28,370 nucleotides of DNA from a virus (taxonomy: Duplodnaviria; Caudoviricetes): the IMG/VR virus record IMGVR_UViG_3300045581_000404, positions 1 through 28,370 of that record. One strand, 5' to 3'. Both the position numbers and the translations under genes were made by a program. The notes under the pieces are model-generated. The model was not told where the DNA came from. It made no database searches and worked only from the letters and a program-made list of their open reading frames with translations. Shown one piece after another: positions 2,412-28,370 of the stretch (positions are counted from its first letter, which is position 1; every line of letters begins with the position of its first letter).

Positions 2412-2966
2412 TTACGCAAACGGACAGGCTCGTTGGCCACGGCGCTGAAGGTGGGTATCAATCCGAATGTCGATCACCGATGACATGGTAAGCTCTTGGA
2501 TCTCGATGTCTTTCATCATCATCTTGATTGGACGCAGTAGCGTCCCATCCAGCCGCGAGTCAATACGGTCGTCCTCAGCGGTCTCAATCGCATCCATTAC
2601 CAGCGCCGACCATTCCATGTGACCCTTGCGCTCGGTAGGCACGTCAGGGTTGCGGCGGAGGAATCCGTGCTTGCTGTCGGTACTCAGTTCGAGCTTCAAC
2701 TGGAATGAACTGACAAAGGGTGTATTGGCTTCCTTGTCCGAAGAGTTGTAGACAGGGAAGTTGCCACCAGCGAAGTAGTCCATGTCCTGCTCAATCGAAT
2801 AAGGTTGAAGCAAAGGTAGTTTATCAGTTTGCAAGTTTTGCAAACCGCCCTCGCGGCTCCACTTCAATCCTTGAAGGATGCCGCCAGTCTGGCAGTGAAA
2901 CTCAATCCGTTTGAAGATAGTCCAAACGGCGGCGGTGAATTGATAGCAGTCTGACAAGTTGCTCAT
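2412..2966 (-). CDS. Putative tail terminator/completion protein
   Basis: 184 aa. Assigned by synteny only (after the gp10-like gene, before the tube genes). Confidence 0.4.
   Translation of the reverse strand: MSNLSDCYQFTAAVWTIFKRIEFHCQTGGILQGLKWSREGGLQNLQTDKLPLLQPYSIEQDMDYFAGGNFPVYNSSDKEANTPFVSSFQLKLELSTDSKHGFLRRNPDVPTERKGHMEWSALVMDAIETAEDDRIDSRLDGTLLRPIKMMMKDIEIQELTMSSVIDIRIDTHLQRRGQRACPFA
2829..2843. repeat. TTGCAA-N3-TTGCAA motif copy (perfect, intragenic)
   Basis: TTGCAA gtt TTGCAA; encodes LQNLQ. Confidence 0.9.
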
Positions 2967-3019
2967 GACGACGCACTCTGCAACAAATCATCGCGCATTG
3001 CAAGCCTACCGAATGGCTT

Positions 3020-3601
3020 TCAAACAGCGCCGCGAAGCGACTTAACAAGGTGCTGAACCATAAGCATTTTGCAAGTCGTCCTAGCAAACGACCGCGCATT
3101 CTTGACGATATTCAAGGCGCGGATGCCTCGAACGCGTTTCGCAAAAACGAAGTCCTTGCCTACGACAAAAGGTAGTTTCTTTTTCTTGGTCTTTTTACCA
3201 GCCGCAGCCGAGCCATAGTTTGACCACTGATTCTGCGCTGCCGCAGCCTGATTCGCTGAGATGACCCCGCGAGGGCCAGCAAGGAAGGCTCGTTTCGTTA
3301 GGGGTACGAATAGCCTCTTTGCGCGTTTCGGGCCGTGCGCTCTTGTACCATCCTCAAGGAACCGCATGACCTTGGAAGTATTAGTCAGAACGACGCCATC
3401 GCCGCCAGTGCTTTGTATGACCCATGACCTGCGGGTCTGGCCAGTCCAACGTTTCGGCGTCTGACGAATCATTCTACCGCGAACTATCTCAGCGGCCTTT
3501 TGATGAACCGCCAAGCGGTTGCGGGTAGACATCGCCGAACTGACTCGTTTAACCAAAGTCATTGTCGGCGTGAAATTGACGAACTTGATGTCGATGTTCA
3601 T
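3020..3601 (-). CDS. HK97 gp10-like tail completion/neck protein
   Basis: Basic 193-aa protein with TPKRWTGQTRRSW and FLEDGT, resembling the gp10-like 'TP..TG.LR.S' and 'Y/F.E.GT' motifs. Confidence 0.65.
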   Translation of the reverse strand: MNIDIKFVNFTPTMTLVKRVSSAMSTRNRLAVHQKAAEIVRGRMIRQTPKRWTGQTRRSWVIQSTGGDGVVLTNTSKVMRFLEDGTRAHGPKRAKRLFVPLTKRAFLAGPRGVISANQAAAAQNQWSNYGSAAAGKKTKKKKLPFVVGKDFVFAKRVRGIRALNIVKNARSFARTTCKMLMVQHLVKSLRGAV

Positions 3602-3616
3602 TGGCGCGGGATTCGG

Positions 3617-4207
3617 TTAGAATCCTACCGCACGTCCGCGCTGAATCCAAGGCTTTACTAGCTCATTCACTTCACTAGGAACCTTGGTCTCAAGTAGGCT
3701 TTCGCGGCTACCGTCAAATGCAACGCGCTCCCTGCGCCACTCGCTACTAAGTGCGCAAGCGGTCAGAATAGTTGCGCGGCGGATACTAGCAGGGATAAGC
3801 GCGGGAGGCGCTGTAAGCAAGGTAGTTGCAAAGCCAAAATCACCTTTGATTGCAAGCTCGCCAGTGAACGGAATAGAACCGAAGTTGGAAGAGTATTCAA
3901 AGAAGGTGTCGCCTTCGGCATAGCTCAAACTCGCTAGGTCAATTTCTATGGTGTCGAGTTTTACTTCAGTCAGCGAATTGATTTCAAATGGCAGGATCAC
4001 CACGTTGCCAATCACGCGACGCCTTGGAACGATGTACGGATCAGTCAAATGATCGTGCGACCAGAAATCCCTACCGCAAATCTCATCAATGCGACGAGAG
4101 GCAAGATTTATGGACTCGATGAAGATGTCACTAACTTCTGGCTCGGAGTTGCCAGCGGCTTGAACCACGTCCTCAAGCGAGCAGTACGGTTTGTAAAGCG
4201 TTGCCAT
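3617..4207 (-). CDS. Head-tail connector (adaptor) protein
   Basis: YCSLEDV...ASRRIDEICGRDF, P..IRRAT and V.ELVKPW are typical of gp6/gp15-like connectors; located after the capsid gene. Confidence 0.75.
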   Translation of the reverse strand: MATLYKPYCSLEDVVQAAGNSEPEVSDIFIESINLASRRIDEICGRDFWSHDHLTDPYIVPRRRVIGNVVILPFEINSLTEVKLDTIEIDLASLSYAEGDTFFEYSSNFGSIPFTGELAIKGDFGFATTLLTAPPALIPASIRRATILTACALSSEWRRERVAFDGSRESLLETKVPSEVNELVKPWIQRGRAVGF

Positions 4208-4391
4208 TTATGCAAAGTTTGCAATTTTTCCAAGTTTGGTTTGTGGGCGAGCAAGCAGTGAGTCGCTCATCGACTCGATCCTCAGCCTTGTCGCATTTCT
4301 TGAAACGAGCGACAGCGGCCTTTACCGATTTCTCATCGGTCAGGGTTCGCTGCGCTTCGCGTTGAAAGGTGGCTAGGTTGATGTCGAGCAT
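4173..4391 (-). CDS. Small hypothetical protein
   Basis: 72-aa ORF starting 6 nt after the upstream stop and filling the gap; overlaps the connector start by 35 nt. Confidence 0.4.
   Translation of the reverse strand: MLDINLATFQREAQRTLTDEKSVKAAVARFKKCDKAEDRVDERLTACSPTNQTWKNCKLCINGNALQTVLLA
4201..4233. repeat. Degenerate 4-unit array of the TTGCAA-N3 motif
   Basis: TTGCCA ttt ATGCAA agt TTGCAA ttt TTCCAA, 9-bp period, spanning the connector start codon. Confidence 0.75.
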
Positions 4392-4397
4392 AGAGAG

Positions 4398-6875: not shown

Positions 6876-6904
6876 ATTTAACGATTCCTTTTTCGCGCTG
6901 TCAA
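6876..6904 (-). promoter_or_regulatory. Sigma70-like promoter for major capsid gene
   Basis: Perfect TTGACA (6904-6899)-N17-TTAAAT (6881-6876). Confidence 0.5.
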
Positions 6905-6912: not shown

Positions 6913-6927
6913 TTGCAATGTTTGCAA
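6913..6927. repeat. TTGCAA-N3-TTGCAA motif copy (perfect, intergenic)
   Basis: TTGCAA tgt TTGCAA, 8 bp upstream of the capsid promoter -35. Confidence 0.9.
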
Positions 6928-7408: not shown

Positions 7409-9646
7409 TTACGAAAGTTTTGTTGCAGTAATAAATGCGCCTTTTCGGCATACTATTGATGTGGCAGAAGACGCAGTCTGCCTAAACTGAAGTCTGATAG
7501 TATCAGTAGTGGTTGCCTGAACTAAGCACACGAGGTCATACTTAACGTAAACAGCAGGGTTTGTTCCAGTGCTTTGAGCAACAATCGCCTCCTTAGACGT
7601 ATCGTACTGTGCGTAGTTAGTAATTGTTGTCAAGCTGCCGATAACGTTATGATACGAGCCAACTTGGTAAGTACCCCTAAACTGCGCGACTTGCGCATCT
7701 AGGTAAGGAAAATTGCTTGCGACCCTAACAGTAGCGTTGGCTGCTGAACCGCTGCCGGGAACTTCTACAGCAATAAAGGCAGTGAGCGTGTAGAACCCTG
7801 CTGGTAAAGTTATGGAGGCTACCGTTGATAGGCTAGTGCTAGAAACGGTAACATCATTTTGCGAAACGGATTTGTAAAAAGCAGGATAACGTGCATCGCC
7901 AACTCCAACCGTCAACGCGTTTGAAGGATCGTTAGCGTTTTGGCTGGACATCTGAATCAACCCGCTGAATGACTTGTTGCCGCCAATCGCGGTTTGATTT
8001 CCAGAGAGCATCACCGCCGTGTTGTTCGTTGCGATAGTTCCAGCGGCGGTAGGAAGCCCGAATGAGATGTCGCTAGAAAGAGTCGCCTCAGCCGGGATAG
8101 TAATCTGAGCGTACTTCCCGTCTTTGAATAGCCTAATGTGATTCGCATGAACTCCGCCAACGTCATTTCTCTTAACCACCGTATCGGCAGTAGGCGCAAC
8201 TACCCCAGTATCAGGAACGGCTGGGGTCGTGTTCTTCCATAACCCGTTAACTGAATCGTAACTCAGGACTTGATTGTTCGACGGGCTTGAAATTTGCACG
8301 TTGTGCAATTCCTCAAGCTCGAAACCATTCTGCACTTTGACATAAATGCCGTTGAGCGTGTTGCCATCAACTTTAGTCACATAGCCGATGAAGACCATGT
8401 GGTTCGGCGCGGCGGGTTTATTGGCAACTTTGAAAACCATTCCGCCAGCCACGGTAGGAGAAAGCCAGATCGGATCGCCTTCGACAATTCCGTGGCCACT
8501 TGTTAAAGCAATACCAAGCCCAGTGATGTCCCCCTCGGTCAATACATACCCGAAACCATTCTGGGCAAGAGATTGAATCGCTACGCCTATGGTCTTGCTT
8601 GAAGTTGCTTCACTGCTCGCAATCGCAGGAGAGATGATTTTGTTTTCTCCAGCCGCGCCAGAGATGTAAACGACCGCGCCTTTTGTGATTGCTGTAGCGG
8701 CCTTCGCGTAAATTTCGATGTTCGACGCAGTAAGCGAACCATTCGCACTGCGAATCGCAACAGTATTAGCGGCCACTCCAGTTGAACCAAGGCGTGCTTT
8801 TACATCGCCTCCCTCACCATAAAGAAATCCTTCAAGCGTAGTTTGCGTGGAATCAGTAATCAGGTTTGGGCCTCCGCTAATCTCTGTGACTTCAACGGTA
8901 GTTTCAATCCACTCCGCCGCGCCTTCGGTACTATCCACGCAGCGATACGCTTCCTTTCCAATGACGTCGATCCAAAGCGAGCCAGCCGAATAGCCAAGGG
9001 TTTCATCATCGTCCGCATTCGGCTCGCGGTTGCCATCCCATTTCGCTTTAGGCAAACCGATGTTTTGCTGGGCGCGTTGTTGTTGCGAGAGACTCAGGGA
9101 TTGTGGAGTGTCGTAGCGAACTGCTCGCGTATTGAGCCAGCTTTCTGGCGAGGGAAGATTGATTGGCGTCGCCTCGTTGCCACGAATCACATCATTGTTA
9201 ATAGTGACAAGGGCCACGTTTTGCGTAGAGGCATAAGTAGTTCCGCCATCCTGAGTCCACGTGAGTTCGAGCATTCCTTGCACCGATGCCACATCAGCCT
9301 CAAGCGGGGCATTCACGCGCAACGCATCATACAAGTCTAGGCCATCGAGAGTTAAATCGAGGTTGTAGCCATCTGCCGCAGCCTCGCCATTGACGGTCAT
9401 TGTCTGGTACGCATACAGGATCGGCGAGTCGTATTCGTCTAGTGGCTTAACGGCCATCGTTATTACTGAGCCGTCGGGGATGGTGATAGGCTGGTTAGCC
9501 GTATCAACGAAGATGACATTTAGGCGAATTGCATCACCGCGCTTAAAAGTCAAGCCAAGGCCATTGATCTGAAAGCCAGTACGATCTTCTGCCGTTGGAG
9601 CAAGAACGCCGTTGGAATTTACGTAGACTGTTTTTTTAATAATCAT
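7409..9646 (-). CDS. Fibre/receptor-binding-like structural protein
   Basis: 745 aa, mosaic. BppU-like N-terminus (KRGDAIRLNV), DDETLGYSAGSLWID module, KGAVVYISG...IGV...GDPIWLS beta module, LEELHNVQISSPSNNQVLSYD..LWKN fibre repeat, and a beta-sandwich C-terminal head. Confidence 0.7.
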   Translation of the reverse strand: MIIKKTVYVNSNGVLAPTAEDRTGFQINGLGLTFKRGDAIRLNVIFVDTANQPITIPDGSVITMAVKPLDEYDSPILYAYQTMTVNGEAAADGYNLDLTLDGLDLYDALRVNAPLEADVASVQGMLELTWTQDGGTTYASTQNVALVTINNDVIRGNEATPINLPSPESWLNTRAVRYDTPQSLSLSQQQRAQQNIGLPKAKWDGNREPNADDDETLGYSAGSLWIDVIGKEAYRCVDSTEGAAEWIETTVEVTEISGGPNLITDSTQTTLEGFLYGEGGDVKARLGSTGVAANTVAIRSANGSLTASNIEIYAKAATAITKGAVVYISGAAGENKIISPAIASSEATSSKTIGVAIQSLAQNGFGYVLTEGDITGLGIALTSGHGIVEGDPIWLSPTVAGGMVFKVANKPAAPNHMVFIGYVTKVDGNTLNGIYVKVQNGFELEELHNVQISSPSNNQVLSYDSVNGLWKNTTPAVPDTGVVAPTADTVVKRNDVGGVHANHIRLFKDGKYAQITIPAEATLSSDISFGLPTAAGTIATNNTAVMLSGNQTAIGGNKSFSGLIQMSSQNANDPSNALTVGVGDARYPAFYKSVSQNDVTVSSTSLSTVASITLPAGFYTLTAFIAVEVPGSGSAANATVRVASNFPYLDAQVAQFRGTYQVGSYHNVIGSLTTITNYAQYDTSKEAIVAQSTGTNPAVYVKYDLVCLVQATTTDTIRLQFRQTASSATSIVCRKGAFITATKLS

Positions 9647-10065: not shown

Positions 10066-11547
10066 TTAGGCAATATGGCTGAGGGCTTTTGCGGAGTGGC
10101 GTTTGAAGAGTTTTGATGCACTAGTCAGGTCAAGTGAACGCGCTTGGAATAGCGCATCAGGATTTGCAGGGATTGCGACTAGGCTAATCTCAAATAGATA
10201 AACTTTCTCAATCGTGTGGCCATCGGGGCCGTAAAGGAAGACACCACCCATGCTGAGGGTTTTCAAGTGGCCTTCCATGATGAGGAAACGGACGGTACTC
10301 AACTCAGGCGCATTGCTAACTTTGCCAACCACGCGCAAGCCAATGTCGTCTTGCACCACTTCAGTGTAGCTTCCTGCGATGTTTTCGACGCTATTCTTGT
10401 GGTCAATCAGCATGACGGGGTTGCGCTTGAACTCGCGAATCGTTTCGGTGAATGCACCGGGCATCACGGTATCGCCATCGCGGTCTTTTGCGGTGACATG
10501 CGCAAAGGTCGAGCCGTAGCCAGCGATCATCACGTCGGCATAGTCTACGACGCGGTTCGATTGATCCTTGATTGCGACGCCTTTCGTTCCATCCTGAAGC
10601 AACGCCTCATTGGTCTGCCAAGTCGCCATCTTGCGCTCGACATAAGGAGCGTCATAGGGAGTGAGTTCATCAACTCCAAGGTCAATCGTCGAGTCGCTGG
10701 CCAGCAACAAGCCATTCTCGTCGGGGATAGCCAAGCGGACAGATGCGCGATCATTTGCAAGGTTTGCAATTACGCCAGCGACTTTGACGCCATCATGAGT
10801 GAAGAGGACTGCTTTGCCAGCAGCGAGTTCGGCCTCGTCTTCGTAGTCGAGTTTGATTGCCTTGCCTTCATTCTCCAACTGACGCGCTTTTGCTTCAGCC
10901 CAAGACTTTCCTGCATCGCCGCCCCACAAAGCCCACGCAATGCGGCCAGCACTAGGATAGCCATCCTCACCGGGTCTGAATCCTTGCGCTTGCTTGTCAA
11001 CTTCATGGCGAGCGAAGTAAGAAACCATTCGGCCAATCGTCTCAGGGGAAAGCTCGGTGCGGTTTGAAATGTCCCGCGCACGCGCAACGCCAACCGCAGT
11101 TCCGCCGCGATTGTATTCCCTCCGCCATGCAAGACCGCGCTCGGCTTCAACCGCCATGGCTTCGGTCGGTTTAAGGTTGACCGCTTTGCCATCGCTCTCT
11201 TCGGTGCTTCCAGCAAGTAAAGGTGCATCAACTCGCGTCAGTCCAGCAAGGTAGAAACCAAGGGCTTCTCCAGTGAAGCCGCCGTCCTTCCATACTGAGA
11301 CAAGCGCAACGGGATTGTCAGGCGCAGCGTCGAGTTTCGTATCGCCAAAATTCAGGGTTCCTTCTGGCATGATGTGGTCAACGCGGCCAATCAAGTCCTC
11401 GCCCCATGATACGAAATCGCCTTCCTTCAAAGGCTCGGCTGGCGGTGGCTCAATAAGAAGATCCTTTTGGCGCGTGTCTTCGCGCTGCTTGACAAGGTTA
11501 AACTTGAAAGCGGTTGCTGGTTTTGCGGCGAGAAACTTGAAGGTCAT
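10066..11547 (-). CDS. Prohead protease (HK97 gp4-like) with additional N-terminal domains
   Basis: C-terminal IAGYGSTF...DRDGD.V.PGAF...PVMLIDH...LSMGG...LFEISLVAIPANPDA (His and Ser catalytic motifs). N-terminal SH3-like domain (LKEGDFVSW) and a helical GGTAVGVARAR...GRIAWALWGGDAG domain. Confidence 0.88.
   Translation of the reverse strand: MTFKFLAAKPATAFKFNLVKQREDTRQKDLLIEPPPAEPLKEGDFVSWGEDLIGRVDHIMPEGTLNFGDTKLDAAPDNPVALVSVWKDGGFTGEALGFYLAGLTRVDAPLLAGSTEESDGKAVNLKPTEAMAVEAERGLAWRREYNRGGTAVGVARARDISNRTELSPETIGRMVSYFARHEVDKQAQGFRPGEDGYPSAGRIAWALWGGDAGKSWAEAKARQLENEGKAIKLDYEDEAELAAGKAVLFTHDGVKVAGVIANLANDRASVRLAIPDENGLLLASDSTIDLGVDELTPYDAPYVERKMATWQTNEALLQDGTKGVAIKDQSNRVVDYADVMIAGYGSTFAHVTAKDRDGDTVMPGAFTETIREFKRNPVMLIDHKNSVENIAGSYTEVVQDDIGLRVVGKVSNAPELSTVRFLIMEGHLKTLSMGGVFLYGPDGHTIEKVYLFEISLVAIPANPDALFQARSLDLTSASKLFKRHSAKALSHIA
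10755..10769. repeat. TTGCAA-N3-TTGCAA motif copy (perfect, intragenic)
   Basis: TTGCAA ggt TTGCAA; encodes IANLAN. Confidence 0.9.
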
Positions 11548-14800: not shown

Positions 14801-14897
14801 TTGCAACCTTTGCAAAAATCTTGGACGGAGAAACAAAGTGCCTACAGCCGCAAGTCGGCTTCGTCCGCGTCAGAGGCAAGGTGCGTTGATACCTCAT
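11808..14897 (-). CDS. MuF/SPP1 gp7-like minor head protein fused to ADP-ribosyltransferase domain(s)
   Basis: Follows the portal. N-terminal VNNTTQRRL...GIDAGKS...TIVRTE (MuF). Pro-rich linker at about 13620-13870. VIP2-type R-S-ExE motifs YVFRG / SFMSTT / DEVETLL.RGS at about 13050-13310. Second ART-like block RGV...GSGVYGDGYY...AIDYA...GYDAI at about 11880-12400. Confidence 0.8.
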   Translation of the reverse strand: MRYQRTLPLTRTKPTCGCRHFVSPSKIFAKVAKSKLPAGGWTMESFMTRNGAQLTKDLLNVQRAAKLKGTRLLTKSLTAVMRRQVEKVLELFETSLIRMAGVAATRQVKAVTMTVQADQHADLWASALEQAFRILGKEVEATVQPVMQSVADDIHEKTTTLLTGVKPSAPAKRVMQQSINEIAKDVTGVNNTTQRRLARLISKGIDAGKSPGELMDEIRTKIPQIATNRVPTIVRTELGRAADRAAIRSMKDSGTVTHVSVSGCEAIEQGIPTFRGTPTCNIKNVPIEYSGDLRFHINHTGAITASGFRQENGSTPALPLKQGEGIGTWEDRGRPVPALVSDGGLPKPPKPPEPPQPPAAPIAPKPLPPTPPLPAASPLVPVKPKPTPKPKPVVAPKPTPTPAPIPAVVDPVPTIAPPPALTPIIPDTPSATTATTSGRTPVGYDGFVASMELVPSGSPRNAAEFYGRLFNGSVNLTNDDRLAFADYIETPAFSQRLRTGFTNNIQVIQDAPRVRALTESLSSRTLQKETYVFRGLNSVPELENLNVGDYLVEDSFMSTTPSMNSAFIKETVQYGGIVMRVKLPKGAPVKYVSGASPSAYYADEVETLLQRGSKLRLVGKTQGNGVTYLDFDFESASPNEYDWVSKLKGAVVPDNLGYSYPKEQLDNLVGAYFNDLVVRGGQSFDDLSAQLKAMSVNKWSRADVVAYLKESGWSPYMTDAQVRGLAKPSLKEAVAPKTARLPGIPTDEKYDKLNDFLSGAFTTKQVDQLLSTVDGFNIDLKPFENALTGETFSFVDGGSIHMQRARFASDEKPNFLSKKDFVKAAKDSHPLGHFDRGVDHPDPLGALKKDKAWQGSGVYGDGYYHQLVAPYKITLEDTLARKFSSTAIDYAEQGPDAKIMVGFLRKEANVISNIKLDEEKIAFTDYIGDLFPRSPTIYAKEKYGLSSISDVTPEMLDEIKDEFGRLYKLRTVALDLSFNSGAYARVAGYDAIHVESMDYLVVVNNRHYVLLDETAKWNETEKTFLFDEN
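14801..14815. repeat. TTGCAA-N3-TTGCAA motif copy (perfect, intragenic)
   Basis: TTGCAA cct TTGCAA; encodes FAKVAK. Confidence 0.9.
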
Positions 14898-16262: not shown

Positions 16263-16997
16263 TTAGTCCTTCGGGAACGCAACGTCCTCCACTACTGGGT
16301 TGGCAACGAGAACGGTTTTCTTTCCGCAGCCGCCGCATCCTCCGCCTTCCGCATTGCGGGTCATGTTAGGCTCACGCGTCCAAACAGGTTGAGTGTTGAG
16401 TCGATTGACATCTTCAACAAGTAGCTCAGTCAATGGGTCTTTGAACTCACGAGCTATGTAGCGCACCTCACGCGCACGCGCAAAGTTGAAGTTAAGCGTA
16501 TCCAGCCCGCGCTCGAAGTTAGGATGCGCGTTGGCGAACTCGGCGAGCGTCCGAAACGAAACGACAAGGTCAGGGTCGCCGCTCAAGTAGTCAATCTGCG
16601 ACCTGAATATTGTCGGCCATTCGTTGGCAGTCTTGAACCAGTCAATCGCCCCTTCGGCAGCACCTGTAAGGGTATTGAAGTCAGACAAGTAAATCGCCAA
16701 GTCCTCGAAAGCCCTACCGCCATACTCAGCGATCTCTTGCGCGGTGAACTCGTCAAAGGGTTTGCTAGTAGTCAGACTCACCGCACTCACGAAACGTTCC
16801 AACGGGTTGCGAACCACCACCATCACCGCGTAGTTCTCGAACTGCGGCGGCAATGCGCCTTCGCTTTTCAAGTCGGCAGCAGTTGCAAACCTTGCAAAAC
16901 CATCAAGCGGTTCTGCCCGAAGCATATCAGCGACTGAGTAATTGGCGCAACGCGGATTCTCGATGAGGATCAGCTTATGTAAGTGACTTACTTGCAT
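16263..16997 (-). CDS. Sulfotransferase family 2-like protein
   Basis: Starting at ATG 16997: MQVSHLHKLILIENPRCANYS (cf. MIISH.HKFIFIH.PK..GTS), VVVRNPLERFVSA (3'-phosphate-binding RNP..R.VS), FRSQIDYL. C-terminal GGCGGCGKK. Confidence 0.6.
   Translation of the reverse strand: MQVSHLHKLILIENPRCANYSVADMLRAEPLDGFARFATAADLKSEGALPPQFENYAVMVVVRNPLERFVSAVSLTTSKPFDEFTAQEIAEYGGRAFEDLAIYLSDFNTLTGAAEGAIDWFKTANEWPTIFRSQIDYLSGDPDLVVSFRTLAEFANAHPNFERGLDTLNFNFARAREVRYIAREFKDPLTELLVEDVNRLNTQPVWTREPNMTRNAEGGGCGGCGKKTVLVANPVVEDVAFPKD
16883..16897. repeat. TTGCAA-N3-TTGCAA motif copy (perfect, intragenic)
   Basis: TTGCAA acc TTGCAA; encodes FARFAT. Confidence 0.9.
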
Positions 16998-17610: not shown

Positions 17611-17625
17611 TTGCAACTTATGCAA
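17611..17625. repeat. TTGCAA-N3-TTGCAA motif copy (1 mismatch)
   Basis: TTGCAA ctt ATGCAA over the terminase stop codon. Confidence 0.7.
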
Positions 17626-19654: not shown

Positions 19655-20242
19655 TTATCTGGAGTTTGATTCTAAAATAATCGCTTTAGCTAACGCTTCC
19701 TCATAAGTTTCGCTAAAGCGAAGACTGGCTGCGTAGTTTGCTAAGTCACCGACACTAGCATTGTTGTCTAAGCATAAAGTTAAGTGACGCCTACCTAGGG
19801 AAAGGATTGGATCTAATTTATTCAGGTCGTCATAACCCTTTACTCGCCAAACTATCTCTGAAGCGGCTAGTACAGCCTTATCGCATGGCATGCCCTTGCT
19901 AGGCCCGATAAGCATAAGATGCTCATTCGGCATTAGCTCCAGTGGAGATTCGCCGTAGCTTGATAGTACAAGCCGTATTCCACGCGCATGGCTAACTGTC
20001 CGCAGCTCATTCAGTGAACCCTGATCCTGCTTGGCTAAGTCTCCGCCAATAAGTGAAACAGTATCGACGGTGTTAGCCGATTTTAGCAGGTCATAGGCGT
20101 TTATGGTCAAAGTTGACTTGCTGGCGGCGCACTTATGGCAGCAATTATTTGCACACTTTGCAAATTCTACCAGTAGGCATTTCTCCCCTGCTAGTAGCCC
20201 GTAAGGGTGTGCGCCTATTGAAAGTGACGATACGCTTAACAT
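19655..20242 (-). CDS. Divergent QueE/NrdG-like radical SAM-fold protein
   Basis: Collinear resemblance to QueE: G..AGEKCLLVEFAKCANNCCHKC (FVRF.GCNL.C.WC), VSLIGGD (VVITGGEP), HARGIRLVLSSYG (..G...IETNG), IGPSK (VSPK), ASEIVWRV (ADELK.V). Confidence 0.5.
   Translation of the reverse strand: MLSVSSLSIGAHPYGLLAGEKCLLVEFAKCANNCCHKCAASKSTLTINAYDLLKSANTVDTVSLIGGDLAKQDQGSLNELRTVSHARGIRLVLSSYGESPLELMPNEHLMLIGPSKGMPCDKAVLAASEIVWRVKGYDDLNKLDPILSLGRRHLTLCLDNNASVGDLANYAASLRFSETYEEALAKAIILESNSR
20149..20163. repeat. TTGCAA-N3-TTGCAA motif copy (1 mismatch)
   Basis: TTGCAC act TTGCAA; encodes FAKCAN. Confidence 0.7.
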
Positions 20243-20266: not shown

Positions 20267-20794
20267 TTACTTATCTGGAACCCATCCTTTTCCAAAGGCG
20301 TCGGCTCCTGCTTGCTCAGGGCTTGTCTGTAGATTTGCGAGCCTGTCTACCTCTTCGCGTTCCATCCCTAGCTTTACCATAACCTCATCATGGGTGTAGC
20401 CATGGTCATTTATTAGTGACCTTACTATCTCTCCCATTAGCAGCACGGAGTGCTTACCCCTTGCGCGATTATGGCGAACAGTTGCCATCTTCAACTCGCC
20501 CTCATCCAAGGCTGGCGATAGGAAGACCACTGGCACTTTACCACCCGTCAATGCTTTAATGTCTTCATCGGTACGGCTTAGTGTCCAGCGATGGAATCCA
20601 TCAACGATGACGCCATTGGGCCTAGCAATAACTGGCTGTGTCCATCCAGAAATCAAAAGGCTCATCTTTAGAAGCATCATCTCAGGCTTAAAGACATGGT
20701 TTGGGTTGTAATCATTATGGTGTAGTTCTTTTGGGTCTACCCACTTAACCTCATAAAGTGGATGATCCTGCGGCTTAGTTTTCTTGGTATTCAT
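20267..20794 (-). CDS. IbrB/YbdM-like ParB/Srx-domain protein
   Basis: V.WV....L..NDYNPN.V...E..LL..S....GWTQP, IVDGFHR, ATVRHNRARGKH, and a C-terminal HTH (LGMEREEVDRL). Confidence 0.85.
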   Translation of the reverse strand: MNTKKTKPQDHPLYEVKWVDPKELHHNDYNPNHVFKPEMMLLKMSLLISGWTQPVIARPNGVIVDGFHRWTLSRTDEDIKALTGGKVPVVFLSPALDEGELKMATVRHNRARGKHSVLLMGEIVRSLINDHGYTHDEVMVKLGMEREEVDRLANLQTSPEQAGADAFGKGWVPDK

Positions 20795-20837: not shown

Positions 20838-21989
20838 TTAGTCCTTGCCGTAGGTTGGCTGCTTCCTGCCCTTGAAGTCACCACGAGAGGCCAGCATGTA
20901 AAGGTAGGCCCAAGTTACCCCCGTCGAAGTAGCAACGGTAGTAGGAATAGGCGCGTTGTTTGACTTGCGATTATGGTTTCCTATCTCACGTGCAATGCGT
21001 CGCTTTACTTGCTCCCTAACGTCAGGCTTCCAGCGTAGCAGTGCATGATCTATCTGCTCCTCAGGGTCAAGTTTAGGATTAAAGCCAGTATCGCCGAATG
21101 AGTACAATGCCGTGCGTGAATAGCGCATTGCTGTAGCAACGCCGTCAACTCGCTGAAGCATTTTCTCGGCTAAGTCAGGATAGCAGATTTGATAAACATA
21201 AAGTCCGCCAAGCGGCTCTTCTCCAAACGGCGGACAGACTCGCTGATTATGCCTACTAATGCCAGCGCGTTCCTGATGGTCATAAGACTCATTATGATCC
21301 CACTTGAAAAGGTTATGCGCTGTCCACACATCCTCGGTGGTGAAGTCATAGATAGGCTTAACCATGTAAACACGTGAGCACTTAGGATCTACGCTAACGT
21401 AGTTGAGAGAGTCGCTGCTTTTACGTGCAACAATCTGGTAGCGCCTTAGTGACTCAGTAGCGCGTAGTCCTACCAACATAGCAACACTTCCAGTACAGCC
21501 TATCGTAGTAGTCATCCAGTCATTAAGCTCTGGGACTGTTAGGCGATTAAAGCCACTAGTATTTTCAATAGTGTGGATAATGGCTTTGGGATACTTCTCA
21601 CTAGTTGGAATAGGTCTGCACCATAGATCCTTCTTATTTTCATCCCAGCACCACCAAAATGGCTCAGTAGTTGAGCAAGCATTCCTATGTTTAATAGGCA
21701 TGCACATCCAGTGAAGCTCGATACGGTCGCGCATAGCCTCTCGATAAACATAGTCTATGGTAGGCCATGGAATAGCTTCCTCATCCCAGAATACAACCTT
21801 TAGCGGCTTTGATTGACCTACCTGCTTATGCGCCTCTATCGCAGCATTCAGCAGAACTGTTGAGTCTTTACCGCCGGAGAACGATACAACGACGTCATCA
21901 GCCATATCCCAGACTCGCTTGAGCCTTTCAATAGCCAACTCCCATACGTTCTCGTCGGTGTATCGCTTTTTGTAAACCTTACTGCTCAT
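20838..21989 (-). CDS. IbrA/YbdN-like PAPS reductase-family (PP-loop) protein
   Basis: NV...A..R, VSFSGGKDS, FWDEEA, W.C.P...RNA, WWCWD, LVGLRATESLRR, PIYDF...DVW, RVCPPFG. Confidence 0.88.
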   Translation of the reverse strand: MSSKVYKKRYTDENVWELAIERLKRVWDMADDVVVSFSGGKDSTVLLNAAIEAHKQVGQSKPLKVVFWDEEAIPWPTIDYVYREAMRDRIELHWMCMPIKHRNACSTTEPFWWCWDENKKDLWCRPIPTSEKYPKAIIHTIENTSGFNRLTVPELNDWMTTTIGCTGSVAMLVGLRATESLRRYQIVARKSSDSLNYVSVDPKCSRVYMVKPIYDFTTEDVWTAHNLFKWDHNESYDHQERAGISRHNQRVCPPFGEEPLGGLYVYQICYPDLAEKMLQRVDGVATAMRYSRTALYSFGDTGFNPKLDPEEQIDHALLRWKPDVREQVKRRIAREIGNHNRKSNNAPIPTTVATSTGVTWAYLYMLASRGDFKGRKQPTYGKD

Positions 21990-22814: not shown

Positions 22815-23573
22815 TTAGCTGTTAGGCTGGGTAGGCTTGTACTGATGCAGCGCCCTTAGGACGGCTGCGCTATTTGAAATTTCCCCCATACTTACGCCTT
22901 CAATAGCAGCGGCGTCATTGCGTATGGCTCGAAGAAGTCCCATAACCTCAATGTGGTCATTAGGCGAGAATGAAAGAACCAGCGGTATGTTATCGTTAGC
23001 CGACTTGTAGTTTGCCACGCTGCTTCCGTCATTGGAGTCAGCGTCATCATCCTCACCGTTGTCCTTTTGCGTAGAACTCGAAGGAAGACTTATTTTGAAC
23101 TTTGACGCCAACGACTCAGTGCTGAAGCCCGTGAGTTTTAAGTCAAAAGACGGCACGCTTCCTAGCTCGGTAAGGAATTGCTTCATGCCTTTTTTATCAT
23201 CTTGCCCAAGCAGATTGTTGGCAGCAAGCAGCCTAGCAATGTGGGTAGGCTCATCATAGTCTACCACTACCACGTCTACTTCAGTCACCCCAATACTCTG
23301 CATTACCTTGCAGCGAAGGTGGCCGCTTACAAGTTGGCCATTACGCTTATTCCAAACGACGGGATCAAAGTAGTCATGATTTAGGCTTGAAACCATAACC
23401 TCCCACTCAGGGCTATCTGGGTCTGGATGTCTGCGAACCTCGCTGTTTCTTGGATGTTCCTTCAGGCTTTCAATAGGAAGCCTCTTGACCTGCAAGGCCA
23501 TAACCTTGCCAGCAGCGTCAGGCTGCGTCTCATCAGTGTCTAGGGCGCGGTTGCGCGTTTTTTGTGTTTGCAT
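22815..23573 (-). CDS. ParB-like N-terminal domain protein
   Basis: I..LKEHPRN, PVVWNKRNGQLVSGHLR and V.VVVVD..E...L.AN of phage ParB/Srx domains; acidic linker, then a small helical C-terminal domain. Confidence 0.75.
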   Translation of the reverse strand: MQTQKTRNRALDTDETQPDAAGKVMALQVKRLPIESLKEHPRNSEVRRHPDPDSPEWEVMVSSLNHDYFDPVVWNKRNGQLVSGHLRCKVMQSIGVTEVDVVVVDYDEPTHIARLLAANNLLGQDDKKGMKQFLTELGSVPSFDLKLTGFSTESLASKFKISLPSSSTQKDNGEDDDADSNDGSSVANYKSANDNIPLVLSFSPNDHIEVMGLLRAIRNDAAAIEGVSMGEISNSAAVLRALHQYKPTQPNS

Positions 23574-23729: not shown

Positions 23730-24404
23730 CTAGGATTTTGCTTTTGAGAAATTTTCGAGTAGCGCAAATGATCTTTCGCCGTACGCAGCCAGTCGGTCGT
23801 CCGTGTCGATTTGCAGACCAAGCGCATCCGCTTCCTGCGTTGACCAGACTACCTTGGCTGATTTCAACCCATGCTTCTCGATCAAGTGGTCATGCTTGCC
23901 GCCGTAGGACGCTTGCAGGATCAAGTTGCTTGGGATGTCGTTGATTCGGGCGATCCAGAAGGGCAATGACTTGGTGAATGCCCAGAAGTGAACGTCGGGC
24001 CTTGTGCGGATGAATTGAAGCCAGCCGTCGAAATAGTTCTGAGAGAAGAAGTCACCCGCCGAATGAATCCGAACGCGTTTGGCCTTCGCTGGCAAACATT
24101 GCAACACGTTGCAAATTTCGTCGGGCGTCTTTCCTTTCACCGCCTCGAAGTTTGCCCACAGCCGCTTGCGCACGGACGGATACCGCTCGGTCATCGCTGA
24201 GTAGCATTTGAATTTCTGCGCCGCGCCATTGGTAATCTTGCCTGAGTCTCTATCCGCTTTGGCCAAGCATTGCTCGGCAGCGGGACAAGTCCACCCGCTT
24301 GGAATGTTCCAAGAGTAGGCGGCAGGGTCAAAGATGTAGCGATTGACCTTCGTGAATGCTGGTTTGAGTTCTGGGGTCACAGCGGTGATGCGAGACTCAA
24401 TCAT
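23730..24404 (-). CDS. Gene product 88 (GP88)-like protein
   Basis: W.IPSG.TCP.A..C...CY, RIHSAGDFFS..Y...W......PDV.FWAFTKS, P.NL....S.GG, typical of the phage GP88 family. Confidence 0.75.
   Translation of the reverse strand: MIESRITAVTPELKPAFTKVNRYIFDPAAYSWNIPSGWTCPAAEQCLAKADRDSGKITNGAAQKFKCYSAMTERYPSVRKRLWANFEAVKGKTPDEICNVLQCLPAKAKRVRIHSAGDFFSQNYFDGWLQFIRTRPDVHFWAFTKSLPFWIARINDIPSNLILQASYGGKHDHLIEKHGLKSAKVVWSTQEADALGLQIDTDDRLAAYGERSFALLENFSKAKS
24090..24114. repeat. TTGCAA-N3-TTGCAA motif copy (1 mismatch, plus an extra half-site)
   Basis: TGGCAA aca TTGCAA cacg TTGCAA. Confidence 0.65.
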
Positions 24405-24441
24405 TATGCTAAAACGGTGTCAAGCCAGTTCTGCGAAATAG

Positions 24442-24537
24442 TTTGTGACAAATCGCACAGTTTTTCTGTCACAAAAGAAATTGCAAGGTTTGCAATTTTG
24501 GAAAGTTGTTACTGACAGAGGTCTCTACCAGTAACAA
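24442..24537. promoter_or_regulatory. Divergent control region: two inverted repeats flanking a triple TTGCAA motif
   Basis: TTTGTGACA (24442-50) / TGTCACAAA (24467-75); TTGCAA ggt TTGCAA ttt TGGAAA (24481-504); TTGTTACTG (24506-14) / CAGTAACAA (24529-37). Confidence 0.65.
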
Positions 24538-24585
24538 ACCTCTCGCCATCTCATTTGACTGGACGCGGTTATCCTATGGCGTATC

Positions 24586-24894
24586 ATGCGCCCGATGCTC
24601 AAGAGCGTTTCCATCGCTGGCCACAAGATACCGATACGCGTGAAGAATCTTGAGGATTGCTACGGGCAGTATTCTCCCGATGCGAAGGTGATCGAACTCG
24701 ACAGGAAGACGCTCAAGGATAGTAAGCTCCTGCGCGAAACTCTGCGTCATGAGATGGTCGAGGCCGCATTGTATCTCAGCGGCGTCGCCTACAGCGAAAA
24801 CTACGAGCAAGAGCCAATCGTCCGCGCACTCGATGAGTTATTCTGGCCAGCTTGGGACTCGGCCAGCAAACGGCTGGACAAGCTCACGCAATGA
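24586..24894 (+). CDS. Small zincin/metallopeptidase-like protein (HExxH variant)
   Basis: V.IAG..I.I......YGQY......I.LD.......ETLRHEMVEA..E..V architecture of small phage HExxH proteins, but with HEMVE. Only convincing plus-strand gene. Confidence 0.6.
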   Translation: MRPMLKSVSIAGHKIPIRVKNLEDCYGQYSPDAKVIELDRKTLKDSKLLRETLRHEMVEAALYLSGVAYSENYEQEPIVRALDELFWPAWDSASKRLDKLTQ

Positions 24895-24895
24895 T

Positions 24896-24910
24896 TTGCA
24901 AGGCTTGCAA
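24896..24910. repeat. TTGCAA-N3-TTGCAA motif copy (perfect, intergenic)
   Basis: TTGCAA ggc TTGCAA fills most of the 23-bp gap between two convergent stop codons. Confidence 0.9.
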
Positions 24911-24917
24911 ATTTATC

Positions 24918-25202
24918 TCAGCAGACTGGCCATGCTCGTAGCTCGTCATAAGTGAAGTCGTCATTGTCGTGGTCAGCCGACTCAAAGGGATTGTCGTCGT
25001 TCGGCCACGTGGGCTTATTCCAGCTCAGGCCGTTCTTTGCCAGTTGCCGCAATTCCTCTACCGTGGAGTTTTCCGCCGCCGCAATTCTCGACAAGGCCCT
25101 TTCCATCATGAAGAGCTTTCCACGCAGCGCGGACTCACGCTCGCCGCTCATTGCCAGCAGCCGCGCTTGCTCAAGGCATTCGTCGCATTGGCGCTCACTC
25201 AT
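24918..25202 (-). CDS. Hypothetical protein
   Basis: ATG at 25202 (MSERQCDECLEQARLL...) overlaps the end of the upstream gene; preferred over the TTG start. Confidence 0.6.
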   Translation of the reverse strand: MSERQCDECLEQARLLAMSGERESALRGKLFMMERALSRIAAAENSTVEELRQLAKNGLSWNKPTWPNDDNPFESADHDNDDFTYDELRAWPVC

Positions 25203-25392
25203 CAACGTTCTTTCCGCAGTCAGGGCAGTAGTCTCCCATTGGCTCAACCCGTGAGAAGAGCGGATCTTTGTCGCTGCCGCAATGCGGGCACTTAAACGAC
25301 TTGGCCTCCTTGCGGAAGATGTAGTCGTGGTTGTCGCGAAATACTTCGCCCTTTACGGGTCGCGGCGCATGGCCTTTTCCTGCTTGGTTCAT
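25195..25392 (-). CDS. Small zinc-ribbon protein
   Basis: CPHCG...CPDCG with an N-terminal GKG..PRPV motif. Confidence 0.65.
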   Translation of the reverse strand: MNQAGKGHAPRPVKGEVFRDNHDYIFRKEAKSFKCPHCGSDKDPLFSRVEPMGDYCPDCGKNVDE

Positions 25393-25775
25393 TTGTATGG
25401 TGGTAGTTCCCAGTTAAGAGGTTCAAACGTCCTGCATGAAAAGGTGCTAAGGCAAGCACTTATGGCGTCGTCGCACTCTTTGAGCAAGTCCTTGAGTTGC
25501 ATGGCCTCTGCTTCAAACCGATTGGCCTCAAGTCGGTAGCGTTCAGTGGTTTCTTTAAGATCAGCAATCTCGCGTTCATGCTGATCCCCAAGCGTCGCAA
25601 TCGACAGCAGCGCGTTGTCTCTCTTCCGCGTCATGCTTTCCAGTTGCGCCAGCGCAGCGTCTCGTTCTCTTTCTAGCTTACGCGCTAAGTTAGAGTGGAC
25701 GACTGGCGTGCGGCTTGCCGCGCCAATAAAGGTGCTGGCGGGGTATTCGTTTGCGTCTGTTTCTGGTGTGTTCAT
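25389..25775 (-). CDS. Hypothetical coiled-coil protein (TPxTD...ARKLERE type)
   Basis: 128 aa; start and stop overlap neighbours. Confidence 0.7.
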   Translation of the reverse strand: MNTPETDANEYPASTFIGAASRTPVVHSNLARKLERERDAALAQLESMTRKRDNALLSIATLGDQHEREIADLKETTERYRLEANRFEAEAMQLKDLLKECDDAISACLSTFSCRTFEPLNWELPPYK

Positions 25776-26083
25776 TAGTTGTAGTTTTCGTCGCGCATGA
25801 GGCGGTTGAGTTTGGCAACGGCATTGCCGGAATGGATGACGTTGATGTCGTTGTAGAGTTCAATCAGCAAGCCTCTGTACTCGCTCACCTCTTCGGCAAG
25901 TTTCGCGTTGGCTTCGCGTAGGACTTCTACGTCCTTTGGCAACATTCCCTCTGGAAAGCCAGCCGCCAGCTTATCGGCATAGGCTGTCATTTCGGCAAGC
26001 TCGCGCTCCAGCTTGCGAGCAAATGACGCAAAAACGAGTAATTCACCAACTATTTCCTTATCTGTTCTTGGCGTGTCACTCAT
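25775..26083 (-). CDS. Hypothetical coiled-coil protein (TPxTD...ARKLERE type)
   Basis: 102 aa; MSDTPRTD...FARKLERE. Confidence 0.7.
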   Translation of the reverse strand: MSDTPRTDKEIVGELLVFASFARKLERELAEMTAYADKLAAGFPEGMLPKDVEVLREANAKLAEEVSEYRGLLIELYNDINVIHSGNAVAKLNRLMRDENYN

Positions 26084-26388
26084 TGCTGGTTTCTTTCTAC
26101 TGCAATCGCGAGGGCTTCAAAAGTGTCTGGGTCGATCTCGCCGCCTAGGTTGTAATCAGTCAGTGCGCGATCAACTAGCTTGATAAGCTCATCCTTTGTC
26201 GCATTTGCAAACATTGCAAACTGTAGTGCGTCGTCTCTGTCGCGTTCCATGCGTCGGATGACTCCAAGGGCGCAAGTCACTTGCTCTTCAAGCAAACCGA
26301 TCTGTTCCTTCGCCCAAGCCAACTCAGCCCGAAGGTTTGGTGAGTCCTCTGGCGGACTCCAGCCTGTTCCGTATTCTTCGCTTATCAT
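26080..26388 (-). CDS. Hypothetical protein
   Basis: 102 aa; ATGA overlaps with both neighbours. Confidence 0.65.
   Translation of the reverse strand: MISEEYGTGWSPPEDSPNLRAELAWAKEQIGLLEEQVTCALGVIRRMERDRDDALQFAMFANATKDELIKLVDRALTDYNLGGEIDPDTFEALAIAVERNQQ
26205..26219. repeat. TTGCAA-N3-TTGCAA motif copy (perfect, intragenic)
   Basis: TTGCAA aca TTGCAA; encodes FAMFAN. Confidence 0.9.
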
Positions 26389-26708
26389 TTTGTTTCTGGG
26401 CGCTTTTTAGGTTTCGCATTTTTTATTACATGTAGAAGTGCCTCCGCGCACTTGCTAGAATTTGCTAATAAAAAGTTTCGGTCATCAAACGAGTTTCCAC
26501 CAGTAATCTCTAATAGGTGCGATACATACTGCGAAAACATGTCTTCGGTTATGATGATAAGAGCGTCATGGATAGCGTTTAGGTCATTATGGTAGTCTGG
26601 GCAATGTTGCTCATACCTGCCGCGAATAAAGTAAAGAGGCCCCCACTTATCGTAAGAAACTATGCCCAAATACTTGGCTATTTTTTGGTTACTATGATTA
26701 TCTATCAT
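26385..26708 (-). CDS. Hypothetical protein, possible phage ABA-sandwich domain
   Basis: N.KIA..LG...PDY.NDLNA...A...AEALL pattern; AT-richer than neighbours. Confidence 0.5.
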   Translation of the reverse strand: MIDNHSNQKIAKYLGIVSYDKWGPLYFIRGRYEQHCPDYHNDLNAIHDALIIITEDMFSQYVSHLLEITGGNSFDDRNFLLANSSKCAEALLHVIKNAKPKKRPETK

Positions 26709-26716
26709 GCAGCCTT

Positions 26717-26947
26717 TTAAGTGTTAATCCCACCCAGCTTACTACTGTCTTTGATAGCCAGCCTACGCCACTTTTCATTCTCTATGAGTAGCTCTTCAAT
26801 CCGTTTGAGACTTGAGGCGAGGAGTTTGGATTGCTCAATGGCTTCGTTCTTCCACGCCTCAAGCTCGTGCCGAAGTGAATTGCACTCAGCCTGATACATG
26901 CGCTTATCGGTAAGAATACGGTCGATTGCTTCGTCAACATAGCTCAT
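26717..26947 (-). CDS. Hypothetical coiled-coil protein
   Basis: 76 aa; ATGA-coupled. Confidence 0.6.
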   Translation of the reverse strand: MSYVDEAIDRILTDKRMYQAECNSLRHELEAWKNEAIEQSKLLASSLKRIEELLIENEKWRRLAIKDSSKLGGINT

Positions 26948-27234
26948 CGGGCGTCCTCCTTTTCTGCGGCCAATATAATGAAAGCTGGCGTATTATCGCC
27001 AACCCATGCGCCCTCGACGTTGTAGGAAAAGTATTCCTCGGCTTCCTCAAGCGTCATTGATTCCATGAGTTGTCGAATGCACGCTTGCTGATCGTAAACC
27101 GCAAATGGTTTTCCGAACTGCCGCGCAATTCCTAGGAAGCAGGATTCAAAGCCGTCGGCGAGTAGGATCACTTCATCATCGCCAAGGCATACTTCAATGG
27201 CGTCGGAAATTCTTTTGTCTGGGTGGTAAGGCAT
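26944..27234 (-). CDS. Conserved phage hypothetical protein
   Basis: ADGF..CFLG...AVYD...I..LM..MT.EEA.EYF.YNV.GAWVG..TP.F, a recognisable phage family of unknown function. Confidence 0.75.
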   Translation of the reverse strand: MPYHPDKRISDAIEVCLGDDEVILLADGFESCFLGIARQFGKPFAVYDQQACIRQLMESMTLEEAEEYFSYNVEGAWVGDNTPAFIILAAEKEDAR

Positions 27235-27503
27235 TAGTCTAGGCGAGGGTTTAGGATTTCGGAGAGCATTGCTTTTATCCGATGATCGTCCTCAGTCAAG
27301 GCGTAAGCGACTTTAGTTTTAAGGCTGTCGAGTTGCTCGGAGCAGTGGCGCAACTGCTTACGAAGCCTAACAACTTGCTCGTTTGAGATGTTCGCCTCGG
27401 TTATCGCAGCTCCGTACTTGTCGAACCAATTACGCGCTGATTCTTGCCAGCGGTCGAGTTCTTTTTGCAGCCTTGCGCAGTCGGGGTGGGTGTCAGTATT
27501 CAT
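27234..27503 (-). CDS. Hypothetical coiled-coil protein
   Basis: 89 aa; TAATG-coupled to the next gene. Confidence 0.6.
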   Translation of the reverse strand: MNTDTHPDCARLQKELDRWQESARNWFDKYGAAITEANISNEQVVRLRKQLRHCSEQLDSLKTKVAYALTEDDHRIKAMLSEILNPRLD

Positions 27504-27515
27504 GTGGGTTTATGG

Positions 27516-28370
27516 TTAGAGGTCTTCTTGGTGACGAAAGCCAAGGAACGATGGAATGCGTGGCTTGTCCTTCATACCTATTGACTGATAGCGGAACTTG
27601 ACGAGCTTTCCAAGATACTTTTTACGGTTGTCCCATATCTCTTTCCTCAGCGCGGCATCAAAGCCAGTGCCTAGGTTGAAGTCGCCGAAGCGTTTGTGAC
27701 GAAGTACTAACGCGCCAAGGGTTCCAAGCGGCGTGAGGTTTTCTTTGTGCGACGAGCGGCGCGTACGACCAAGCTCATTGGTGGTGGCCTCGTTATCATT
27801 GCGATGCTGTTCCTCGAAGTCGATGATCTCGGCCTCGTCGTCCTCGAACGGTTTGAGTTTGATGAGGTGGCCTTCCTTGAAGGTTGACCTACCGAACTTG
27901 TAGACTCCTCGCGGGGCGCGGATCATTGCGCCTTCGTATCCACGCGTCAAGCATGAGTCAAGATAGTCGTCCAGTTCAATCGAGTCGCGGATGAAGCGCG
28001 TCTCTACTGGTTTGAGATAGGGGTAGCGTTTTGCAAGGCTTGCAATTCTGGAAATGTATTCATTGACCCGTTGCTCATAAGGACGAGTCGGATCAGTGAA
28101 GACGTCAAAAACATGGAACGAGAAGTCTGGTTTTCCATTTCGGGTCATGATGCCAGAAGTCACGTCTTGGAAGGACGAGCCATCACCGACAAGCAACTCA
28201 CCGTCGAATCCATCGAACTCGCGCCGCGTTAGGGTTGCGCTGACGTGCGCGTTTGGGATTGGTTTGAGGGATCGACTTTTTGGCTGGCCGTTGATGATGA
28301 GGCAGCGGATGCCGTCGATCTTTGGCGAGGCTATGAGCGGGAATCTAAGGGATGAGGATGCGCCATCAAA
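27516..28370 (-). CDS. ATP-dependent DNA ligase, minimal type (5' truncated by window)
   Basis: Frame open to the edge: ...FPLIASPKIDGIRC (motif I KxDG), FDGELL (III), FHVFD (IIIa), YEGAMIR (IV), IKLKPF (V), GTGFD, PRIPSFLGFR (VI). Confidence 0.93.
   Translation of the reverse strand, partial: FDGASSSLRFPLIASPKIDGIRCLIINGQPKSRSLKPIPNAHVSATLTRREFDGFDGELLVGDGSSFQDVTSGIMTRNGKPDFSFHVFDVFTDPTRPYEQRVNEYISRIASLAKRYPYLKPVETRFIRDSIELDDYLDSCLTRGYEGAMIRAPRGVYKFGRSTFKEGHLIKLKPFEDDEAEIIDFEEQHRNDNEATTNELGRTRRSSHKENLTPLGTLGALVLRHKRFGDFNLGTGFDAALRKEIWDNRKKYLGKLVKFRYQSIGMKDKPRIPSFLGFRHQEDL
28031..28054. repeat. TTGCAA-N3-TTGCAA motif copy (perfect, with a third degenerate unit)
   Basis: TTGCAA ggc TTGCAA ttc TGGAAA, the same three-unit form as at 24481. 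Confidence 0.9.

Follow-up and report, generated by a model that had tools for sequence, protein, structure and literature searches.

A dispersed palindrome under selection in a tailed phage, and a candidate ParB/KorB-type protein that may read it

Why should a phage genome carry one short palindrome over and over, within genes as well as between them? The question is raised by the virus record IMGVR_UViG_3300045581_000404, whose whole 28,370-bp stretch, referred to here as the window, spans the region of a tailed phage that encodes head, tail and packaging, nearly every gene lying on the minus strand, and in which the sequence TTGCAA-N3-TTGCAA occurs in 9 perfect and 5 one-mismatch copies. 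A first-pass annotation had listed nine perfect and four one-mismatch copies; all of them were recovered, and a fifth one-mismatch copy was located at 4219. Over 100 dinucleotide shuffles of the window, matches with at most one mismatch averaged 0.18, against the 14 observed; over 500 synonymous-codon shuffles, perfect copies inside genes averaged 0.038 and never exceeded 1, against the 6 observed. When all the other spacers from 0 to 12 were counted, a single perfect pair was found in the window (N4, at 24099). Shuffles and spacer counts thus confirmed both the excess over a codon-aware null and the preference for N3 that had been proposed. As had also been described, the copies within genes were translated in differing reading frames (LQNLQ, IANLAN, FAKVAK, CKLC), and extensions with a 9-bp period were present at 24481, 28031 and 4201. 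A looser motif, TTGCA-N5-TGCAA, valid for the family of related phages, brought in an extra site at 8294.

Comparison with the relative G001 (19,272 aligned bases, 83.6% identical, including 12 of the 14 window sites) revealed no change at any of the 30 synonymous positions within half-sites, against a background of 34% of 5,497 (P = 3e-6). Considering all positions, 0 of 144 half-site bases and 6 of 36 spacer bases had changed. The expected conservation at synonymous sites therefore held in a relative, and the palindromes are under selection as DNA. The TTGCAA hexamer alone is also common in the window (36 against 6.6 expected), which favours a pattern arising by chance, through codon bias or from a protein repeat; this explanation is refuted by the shuffles, the codon shuffles and the synonymous-site test, and its probability is practically nil. 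A role as RNA hairpins or terminators was likewise set aside, because the stems consist of 6-7 A/T-rich pairs and lack U-tracts. The original proposal of DNA-level sites for a dimeric protein, spread along the phage chromosome, is supported as the most likely one by this selection together with the homodimer predicted for the candidate reader described below.

Related phages were gathered through capsid searches, which returned 11 and then 46 loci, and 17 related records were examined whole or nearly whole. A dominant dyad of 14-16 bp was found in 15 of the 18 records (window included), each phage having its own variant. G001 harboured 28 copies in 78 kb, G002 18 copies of a TTGCAAACCGTGCAA-type dyad, G006 23 copies of TTGACCGTCGGTCAA and G007 14 dyad copies; TTGCAC-N4(N3)-GTGCAA was found in G003, G004 and G005 (9, 13 and 6 copies), TTGAAAA-N-TTTTCAA in G008 and G012 (15 and 45 copies) and an asymmetric 16-mer in G013 (12 copies). 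No dyad appeared in G009, which belongs to a different family with head genes in common, nor in G016, G017, L006 and L185, which count neither way because these fragments do not cover the reader locus. Complete members are of ~88-90 kb, with genes almost one-directional. Across the family, many sites touch stop codons. Pooling the flanks of 227 sites uncovered no conserved element besides T/A adjoining the motif. Forms of 15 and 16 bp were found side by side in G004 and in G011, and the reader must therefore tolerate a 1-bp change in spacing. At all 23 G006 sites the central base was a T in the transcribed direction, and a symmetric dimer does not account for this orientation bias. A scan of a viral collection with TTTGCAA-N3-TTGCAAA gave an estimated ~2,100 stretches, with a single match each among the rows listed, and was uninformative.

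Which protein reads these sites? We consider, with good confidence, that it is the product of phrog_17202, a core gene of the family (G001 copy 67126-68136, 336 amino acids). In the G001 model, the C-terminal 219 residues (predicted local distance difference test, pLDDT, 89) had as their top VIA-align match the ParB DNA-binding domain-parS complex 6s6h (Z 8.5, root-mean-square deviation 3.3, 111 residues), with Spo0J (1vz0; Z 7.8), KorB (6.7 for 1r71, and 5.7) and VirB (4.9) among the further matches, although by the program's own warning, which belongs with the counterarguments gathered below, Z values under ~13 can be common for helical proteins. Residues 165-216 gave a weak MazE9 match (Z 4.3) and the short C-terminal domain was weakly ribbon-helix-helix-like. 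Foldseek against BFVD returned uncharacterised proteins, a sequence search of the PDB with the reader profile only weak, probably spurious matches, and the ESM Atlas unnamed clusters, with DUF3102 and ParB-type helix-turn-helix (HTH) neighbours at 0.81 as leads only. No ParB_N (CTPase) domain was detected by Pfam or PHROGs in the reader proteins of G001, G004 and G012, the N-terminus being SH3-like or of low complexity. The homodimer was predicted with a score of 0.72 against 0.00 for the best control (20 of 30 solved homodimers attain this mark, as does 1 of 23 monomers), the runs agreeing in at least 89% of contacts at a pLDDT of at least 80. By these predictions the candidate reader would be a dimer whose DNA-binding fold is of the ParB/KorB type and which lacks a CTPase domain.

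Searches with the reader protein produced 19 viral loci, 10 of them new, and 56 GenBank records, for four of which 40 kb were examined. DLP5, which carries the reader gene, contained 11 copies of TGCAATYRATTGCA; Rhizobium phage L338C (reader gene L338C_074, protein AHC30491.1) contained 23 copies of TGCAAC-N2-GTTGCA in its 40 kb, and Pseudomonas phage SM1 10 copies of TGCAA-N4-TTGCA. G020, also with a reader gene, had TGCAA-N5/N4-TTGCA (12 + 10 copies), G021, whose helix has diverged, a different palindrome (8 copies), and G022 TGCACACGTGTGCA (10 copies); profile E-values for these three are inflated because their sequences are in the model, the original identities being 26-32%. Overall, a dyad was found in all 23 carriers examined, clear in 19 and weak in 4 (G018, G019, L235 and SIO-2), and in none of 5 non-carriers (G009 and four phages with an IbrA gene). 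Residue 206, singled out post hoc, was Tyr in 19 proteins (15 with pure TGCA sites, 3 mixed, 1 with TGAA sites) and another residue in 4, of which 3 have non-TGCA sites, SM1 being the exception; this association with the site variant is suggestive only. The match of reader residues to the ParB specificity positions (PMC7383237, available part) was made by eye. Trees of RecA and of the reader were too weak and confounded to support formal covariation analysis.

The same survey bears on other proteins inherited along with the sites. The MerR-like HTH protein, the RepO-like initiator and the small terminase are all encoded by core genes of the near family, and the MerR-like protein gives a weak HTH_17 match, so any of them might be proposed as the reader. 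Nevertheless, G018 and G019 keep sites (4 and 2 strict ones) without a MerR-like gene, as does G020 (94 kb, ~70% complete), in which no RecA, SSB, MerR-like or RepO-like match was found, and the starts of the MerR-like (0 of 9) and repO (0 of 11) genes have no site within 200 bp. A reader of this kind is improbable.

If phrog_17202 encodes the reader, what do the sites do? A sigma70-like promoter in sense orientation started 0-39 bp downstream of 58 of 273 sites, compared to 12 of 273 in antisense and 2.7% at random, and the offset between site and promoter peaked at 7-9 bp. In L338C, 12 of 23 sites adjoined a promoter. The 200 bp preceding the reader gene itself contained a site in 4 of 9 near records and in 8 of 14 distant ones, the counts for the MerR-like gene being 0 of 9 and 0 of 8. 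In G001, a longer, ~60-bp repeat that includes a site and a further half-site precedes clusters of small genes at 2707, 14413, 63540 and 69447; these repeats are probably early promoters. The interpretation that we put forward, at about even confidence, is that the reader acts as a static, KorB-like global regulator, probably of the repressor type, on phage promoters. Each monomer would read one TG(C/A)A half-site, and a site preceding a -35 box by ~8 bp would gate the host RNA polymerase, the reader's own promoter included; a position 7-9 bp upstream of the -35 presumably overlaps the UP-element region. Sites at stop codons and within long genes would serve as roadblocks or as cooperative anchors, holding the one-directional genome silent or on schedule, for example in a plasmid-like prophage state, and the remaining sites would extend control along the long operons in place of the sliding of the KorB clamp. 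Since a reader without a CTPase domain would stay put rather than slide, a site would be needed every few kb. DLP5 has been reported to persist as a phagemid (PMC5834331) and DLP3 to form lysogens (PMC7326821, available part), two lifestyles that would offer a global regulator a possible use. No integrase or repressor family was found among 139 non-core open reading frames (ORFs) of the complete G006 and G012.

Alternatively, the same reader might be mainly structural, forming a static lattice which compacts, bridges, anchors, segregates or shields the DNA in the manner of Noc or MatP, and the proximity of sites to promoters would then only reflect cheap intergenic space. Spacing is relevant here. 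The shortest and longest gaps between sites were 382 and 4,332 bp in the window, and 415 and 7,219 bp in G001. The near-4-kb gaps singled out by the first-pass annotation thus do not reflect a fixed 4-kb period, which was rejected; what stood is that window spacing is more even than random, with a P of 0.03-0.08 varying with pattern and null. Of 15 records, 11 had their sites spaced more evenly than random; a test against a null aware of gene junctions, from which G010, G011 and G015, previously non-significant, were left out, gave the same outcome for 11 of 12. Together with the location of 19 of the 28 G001 sites inside genes and with the presence of an own motif copy in each swapped cassette (20149 and 24090 in the window, 52230 in G001), this regularity argues for a lattice. 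Free space, however, fails to explain the sharp, sense-only offset of 7-9 bp from -35 boxes, and G020, G021 and G022 showed no even spacing. In addition, the 21 ghost-particle proteins named in the available part of the DLP3 report (PMC7326821) do not include the DLP3 homologue, gp62, a weak point because ghosting removes the DNA. A primarily structural role is therefore possible but doubtful in our judgement.

Several results weigh against the regulatory reading or against the identity of its reader. About four fifths of the sites have no adjoining promoter, and under the strict promoter rule the window scored 0 of 12, although the site at 6913 nonetheless has a TTGACA at 8 bp; across 16000-28370 of the window, the promoter scan gave fewer matches than in shuffles. 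Other operon starts are preceded by a site as often as the reader gene (protease 9 of 15, c183 9 of 15). Regarding the fold, the structural scores are modest: Raf1 ties with the ParB matches at Z 8.4, and Foldseek against the PDB returned nothing for the reader model at E <= 0.001. The dyads of G018 and G019 were found only with a directed pattern, and that of SIO-2 is weak (4 copies, log10 P -7.2, against -6.2 for the best control). Moreover, the carriers are not independent draws, because most of them share one replication module. Finally, the reader gene lies outside the window, and the grounds for placing it in this phage are its occurrence in G001 and a single contig that matches the gene at its two ends only: in sequencing run X1, possibly the source of the window, a 3.7-kb contig of depth 23.6 matched both ends of the G001 gene, its middle being unmatched at 80%, and most window contigs of that run had depths of 22.6-28, one having 42. 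That this contig holds the phage's own copy of the reader gene is suggestive only.

Within the window, the perfect site at 2829..2843, in tail-module gene 2412-2966 (minus strand), is identical in G001 and L002. Four half-sites with a 9-bp period, comprising the one-mismatch sites 4210 and 4219, occupy 4201..4233, where genes 4173-4391 and 3617-4207 meet; site 4210 is unchanged in G001, L001 and L002 and has one change in L004. The three non-coding placements given by the first-pass annotation were all found. The first, 6913..6927, is a perfect intergenic site 8 bp upstream of the TTGACA (6899-6904, minus strand) that precedes the major capsid gene, with halves kept and spacer altered in G001, L001, L002 and L004. 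The second, at 24481..24504, consists of a perfect site and a third unit, TGGAAA, in the divergent intergenic region, and the third, 24896..24910, is a perfect site between convergent stop codons; both have their halves kept and spacer changed in G001, as have the perfect site close to the 5' end of the head-morphogenesis gene (14801..14815) and the perfect site with a third unit in the DNA ligase gene (28031..28054). Identical in G001 are the palindromic variant TTGCAC-N3-GTGCAA at 8294..8308, absent from the earlier list and located in the 745-residue gene 7409-9646, the perfect site of the prohead protease gene (10755..10769) and the one-mismatch site over the stop codon of the large terminase (17611..17625). 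Further perfect sites lie in genes 16263-17033 (16883..16897) and 26080-26388 (26205..26219). The one-mismatch site at 20149..20163 belongs to an exchangeable cassette (gene 19655-20242) in a region unaligned to G001, and 24090..24114, in the GP88 gene, combines a one-mismatch N3 site with the overlapping sole perfect N4 site (24099).

Two other features of the window deserve a mention. A GroES-like gene directly follows the large terminase (17299-17625, minus strand) and is present in 9 of the 18 records. The head-morphogenesis gene (11808-14897, minus strand) encodes an ADP-ribosyltransferase domain (PF03496, residues 475-617); the gene is only 65% identical to its counterpart in G001, and run X3 left ~11730 to 13700 almost without cover, so its C-terminal cargo seems variable. 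Elsewhere in the family, G012 encodes the QueC, PTPS and GTP cyclohydrolase I proteins of the 7-deazaguanine pathway and a topoisomerase IB (L214:17868-L215:695; L213:9988-10896).

The window itself encodes ParB-like proteins, and the first-pass annotation had suggested them as users of the sites, either loading there as on parS or, through the associated cassette, modifying them. The exchangeable slot 18631-23734, upstream of the terminase, contains IbrAB, cupin, ParB-N and GP88 genes, all three proteins of interest being encoded on the minus strand: an IbrB-like ParB-N protein (20267..20794; phrog_2159) without a G001 counterpart, an IbrA-like protein of the phosphoadenosine phosphosulfate (PAPS) reductase family (20838..21989; PF01507, DUF3440) found in 4 of 18 records, and a ParB-N-domain protein (22815..23573) with no room for a ParB DNA-binding domain and 25% identical to its G001 copy. 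The AlphaFold2 model of the latter was folded over residues 26-160, disordered over 167-202 and ended in low-confidence helices, and its Foldseek matches were ParB/Noc N-domain structures. This architecture agrees with that of phage ParB proteins lacking a DNA-binding domain, reported as partners of DNA-modifying enzymes (PMC13229309 and PMC12704722, available parts). Some ParB-N gene occurs in 15 of the 18 records, and in SM1 one directly follows the reader gene (L247:19395-21528), placing the two ParB halves next to each other. However, the slot of G001 is occupied by UDP-galactopyranose mutase, two TAGT glycosyltransferases, another ParB-N and a 51-residue GP88 remnant, and in a contig of run X3 5,102 bases of it are replaced by 6,704 others. 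Despite lacking the IbrA, IbrB and cupin genes, G001 keeps its 28 sites with the motif unchanged, the very case named beforehand as speaking against a link between motif and cassette. Conversely, G009 has such genes and no dyad, and four of four unrelated IbrA phages, picked from 223 matches, had no dyad in more than 3 copies and no reader homologue. As the 22815 model, in addition, has no DNA-binding domain, we regard loading on or modification of the sites by the window cassette as highly improbable. The ParB idea survives in another form, the best candidate being the reader gene outside the window, with its predicted ParB/KorB-type DNA-binding domain. Profile comparison of the candidate reader with both window ParB proteins gave no likeness, and hence no support for a shared dimerisation domain.

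A bolder scheme, speculative and rather unlikely, would join the two ParB-related parts as a split machine, in which a clamp-less ParB DNA-binding dimer tiles the genome every few kb at a private palindrome serving as a self-signature, and a separate, exchangeable CTPase gene tied to DNA modification may supply a protein that docks on the lattice. Its extension to phages of 80-170 kb with Verrucomicrobiota-like, alpha- and gamma-proteobacterial hosts, in which the signature would set immunity groups or mark self, is similarly a long shot.

Could the sites instead mimic or decoy a host factor of the Lrp, LysR or ParB families? The window sequence coincides with the optimal site of archaeal Ss-LrpB (PMC2715240, available part), and TTGCA-n5-TGCAA has been predicted for IlvY (PMC5002191, available part). 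On the other hand, related TGCA dyads, each with its own variant, are found in Vibrio, Rhizobium, Pseudomonas and Stenotrophomonas phages. As to the host, the two runs that best covered the window DNA, possibly its source, are freshwater metagenomes, and the only cellular match of the capsid profile, a 16-kb contig in an Opitutus metagenome-assembled genome (MAG), is a weak pointer to Verrucomicrobiota. That MAG showed no excess of the motif (2 sites in 5.3 Mb), and among 61 genomes of the likely host phylum 3 had one site, the control giving 2. A host-factor decoy, raised at first pass, is accordingly very unlikely, the variants being phage-specific and the candidate host genomes showing no excess. 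The two perfect window-type sites of the Opitutus MAG are identical and stand 7.5 kb apart on one contig (G023:C2 21512 and 29055).

If the proposed system is correct, it would give a role to a core gene that is present, without annotation, in at least 56 GenBank phage records, and would reveal a genome-wide layer of control which standard annotation misses because most of the sites hide in genes. It also bears on whether many sites can take the place of sliding when a ParB-family domain governs an entire replicon, and may explain the plasmid maintenance of integrase-free relatives such as DLP5. The cultured carriers L338C, DLP5, SM1 and SIO-2, L338C foremost, make the system directly testable.

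Among known systems, no description of this phage palindrome and its reader was found in the literature searched, which excludes most subscription papers and supplements. The Ss-LrpB site, TTGCAA[AAT/ATT]TTGCAA (PMC2715240, available part), has the same half-sites and spacer length with an A/T spacer; Ss-LrpB and IlvY, however, are cellular regulators whose sites are promoter-local, the variants of this phage family depart from that sequence, and the protein scans turned up no Lrp or LysR gene, so that the likeness is probably due to convergence. The stoperators of mycobacteriophage L5 and cluster A, which number >20 per phage genome and lie in promoter regions or in short gaps between genes (PMC9283540, available part), are similar in number and placement. 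Unlike the sites studied here, of which many lie inside genes, stoperators have an asymmetric 13-bp sequence in fixed orientation, recognised by a monomeric two-domain repressor; ours are dyads for a predicted dimer of another fold, and in G007, G012 and G013 sites occur in both orientations, contrary to the L5 type. ParB-parS and Noc-NBS (PMC7383237, available part) share with this system the best structural match (6s6h), a similar palindrome length and variants that track lineages, but here the sites are not clustered at an origin and no CTPase domain is present in the same polypeptide. The closest parallel is perhaps KorB, which has twelve OB sites in ~60 kb on the IncP-1 plasmid RK2 (PMC13768133, available part), compared to one site per 2-9 kb here, and whose N-terminal CTPase clamp slides on DNA (PMC11790492, available part). 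As with KorB and OB, a ParB-type HTH dimer, here predicted, would bind palindromes scattered over a mobile genome, some near promoters and others far from them. In contrast to KorB, the predicted reader has an SH3-like or unrelated N-terminus in place of the CTPase domain, and the system is borne by phages and not by a conjugative plasmid. No ParA/IncC or KorA-like partner was identified, no profile search for one having been made, and no ParA-type family occurred among the Pfam matches of the 65 + 139 scanned proteins, which represent part of the ORFs. Taken together, and as far as the structural models go, these phages carry a genome-wide, selected set of sites of the KorB/ParB kind, whose predicted reader dispenses with the clamp domain.

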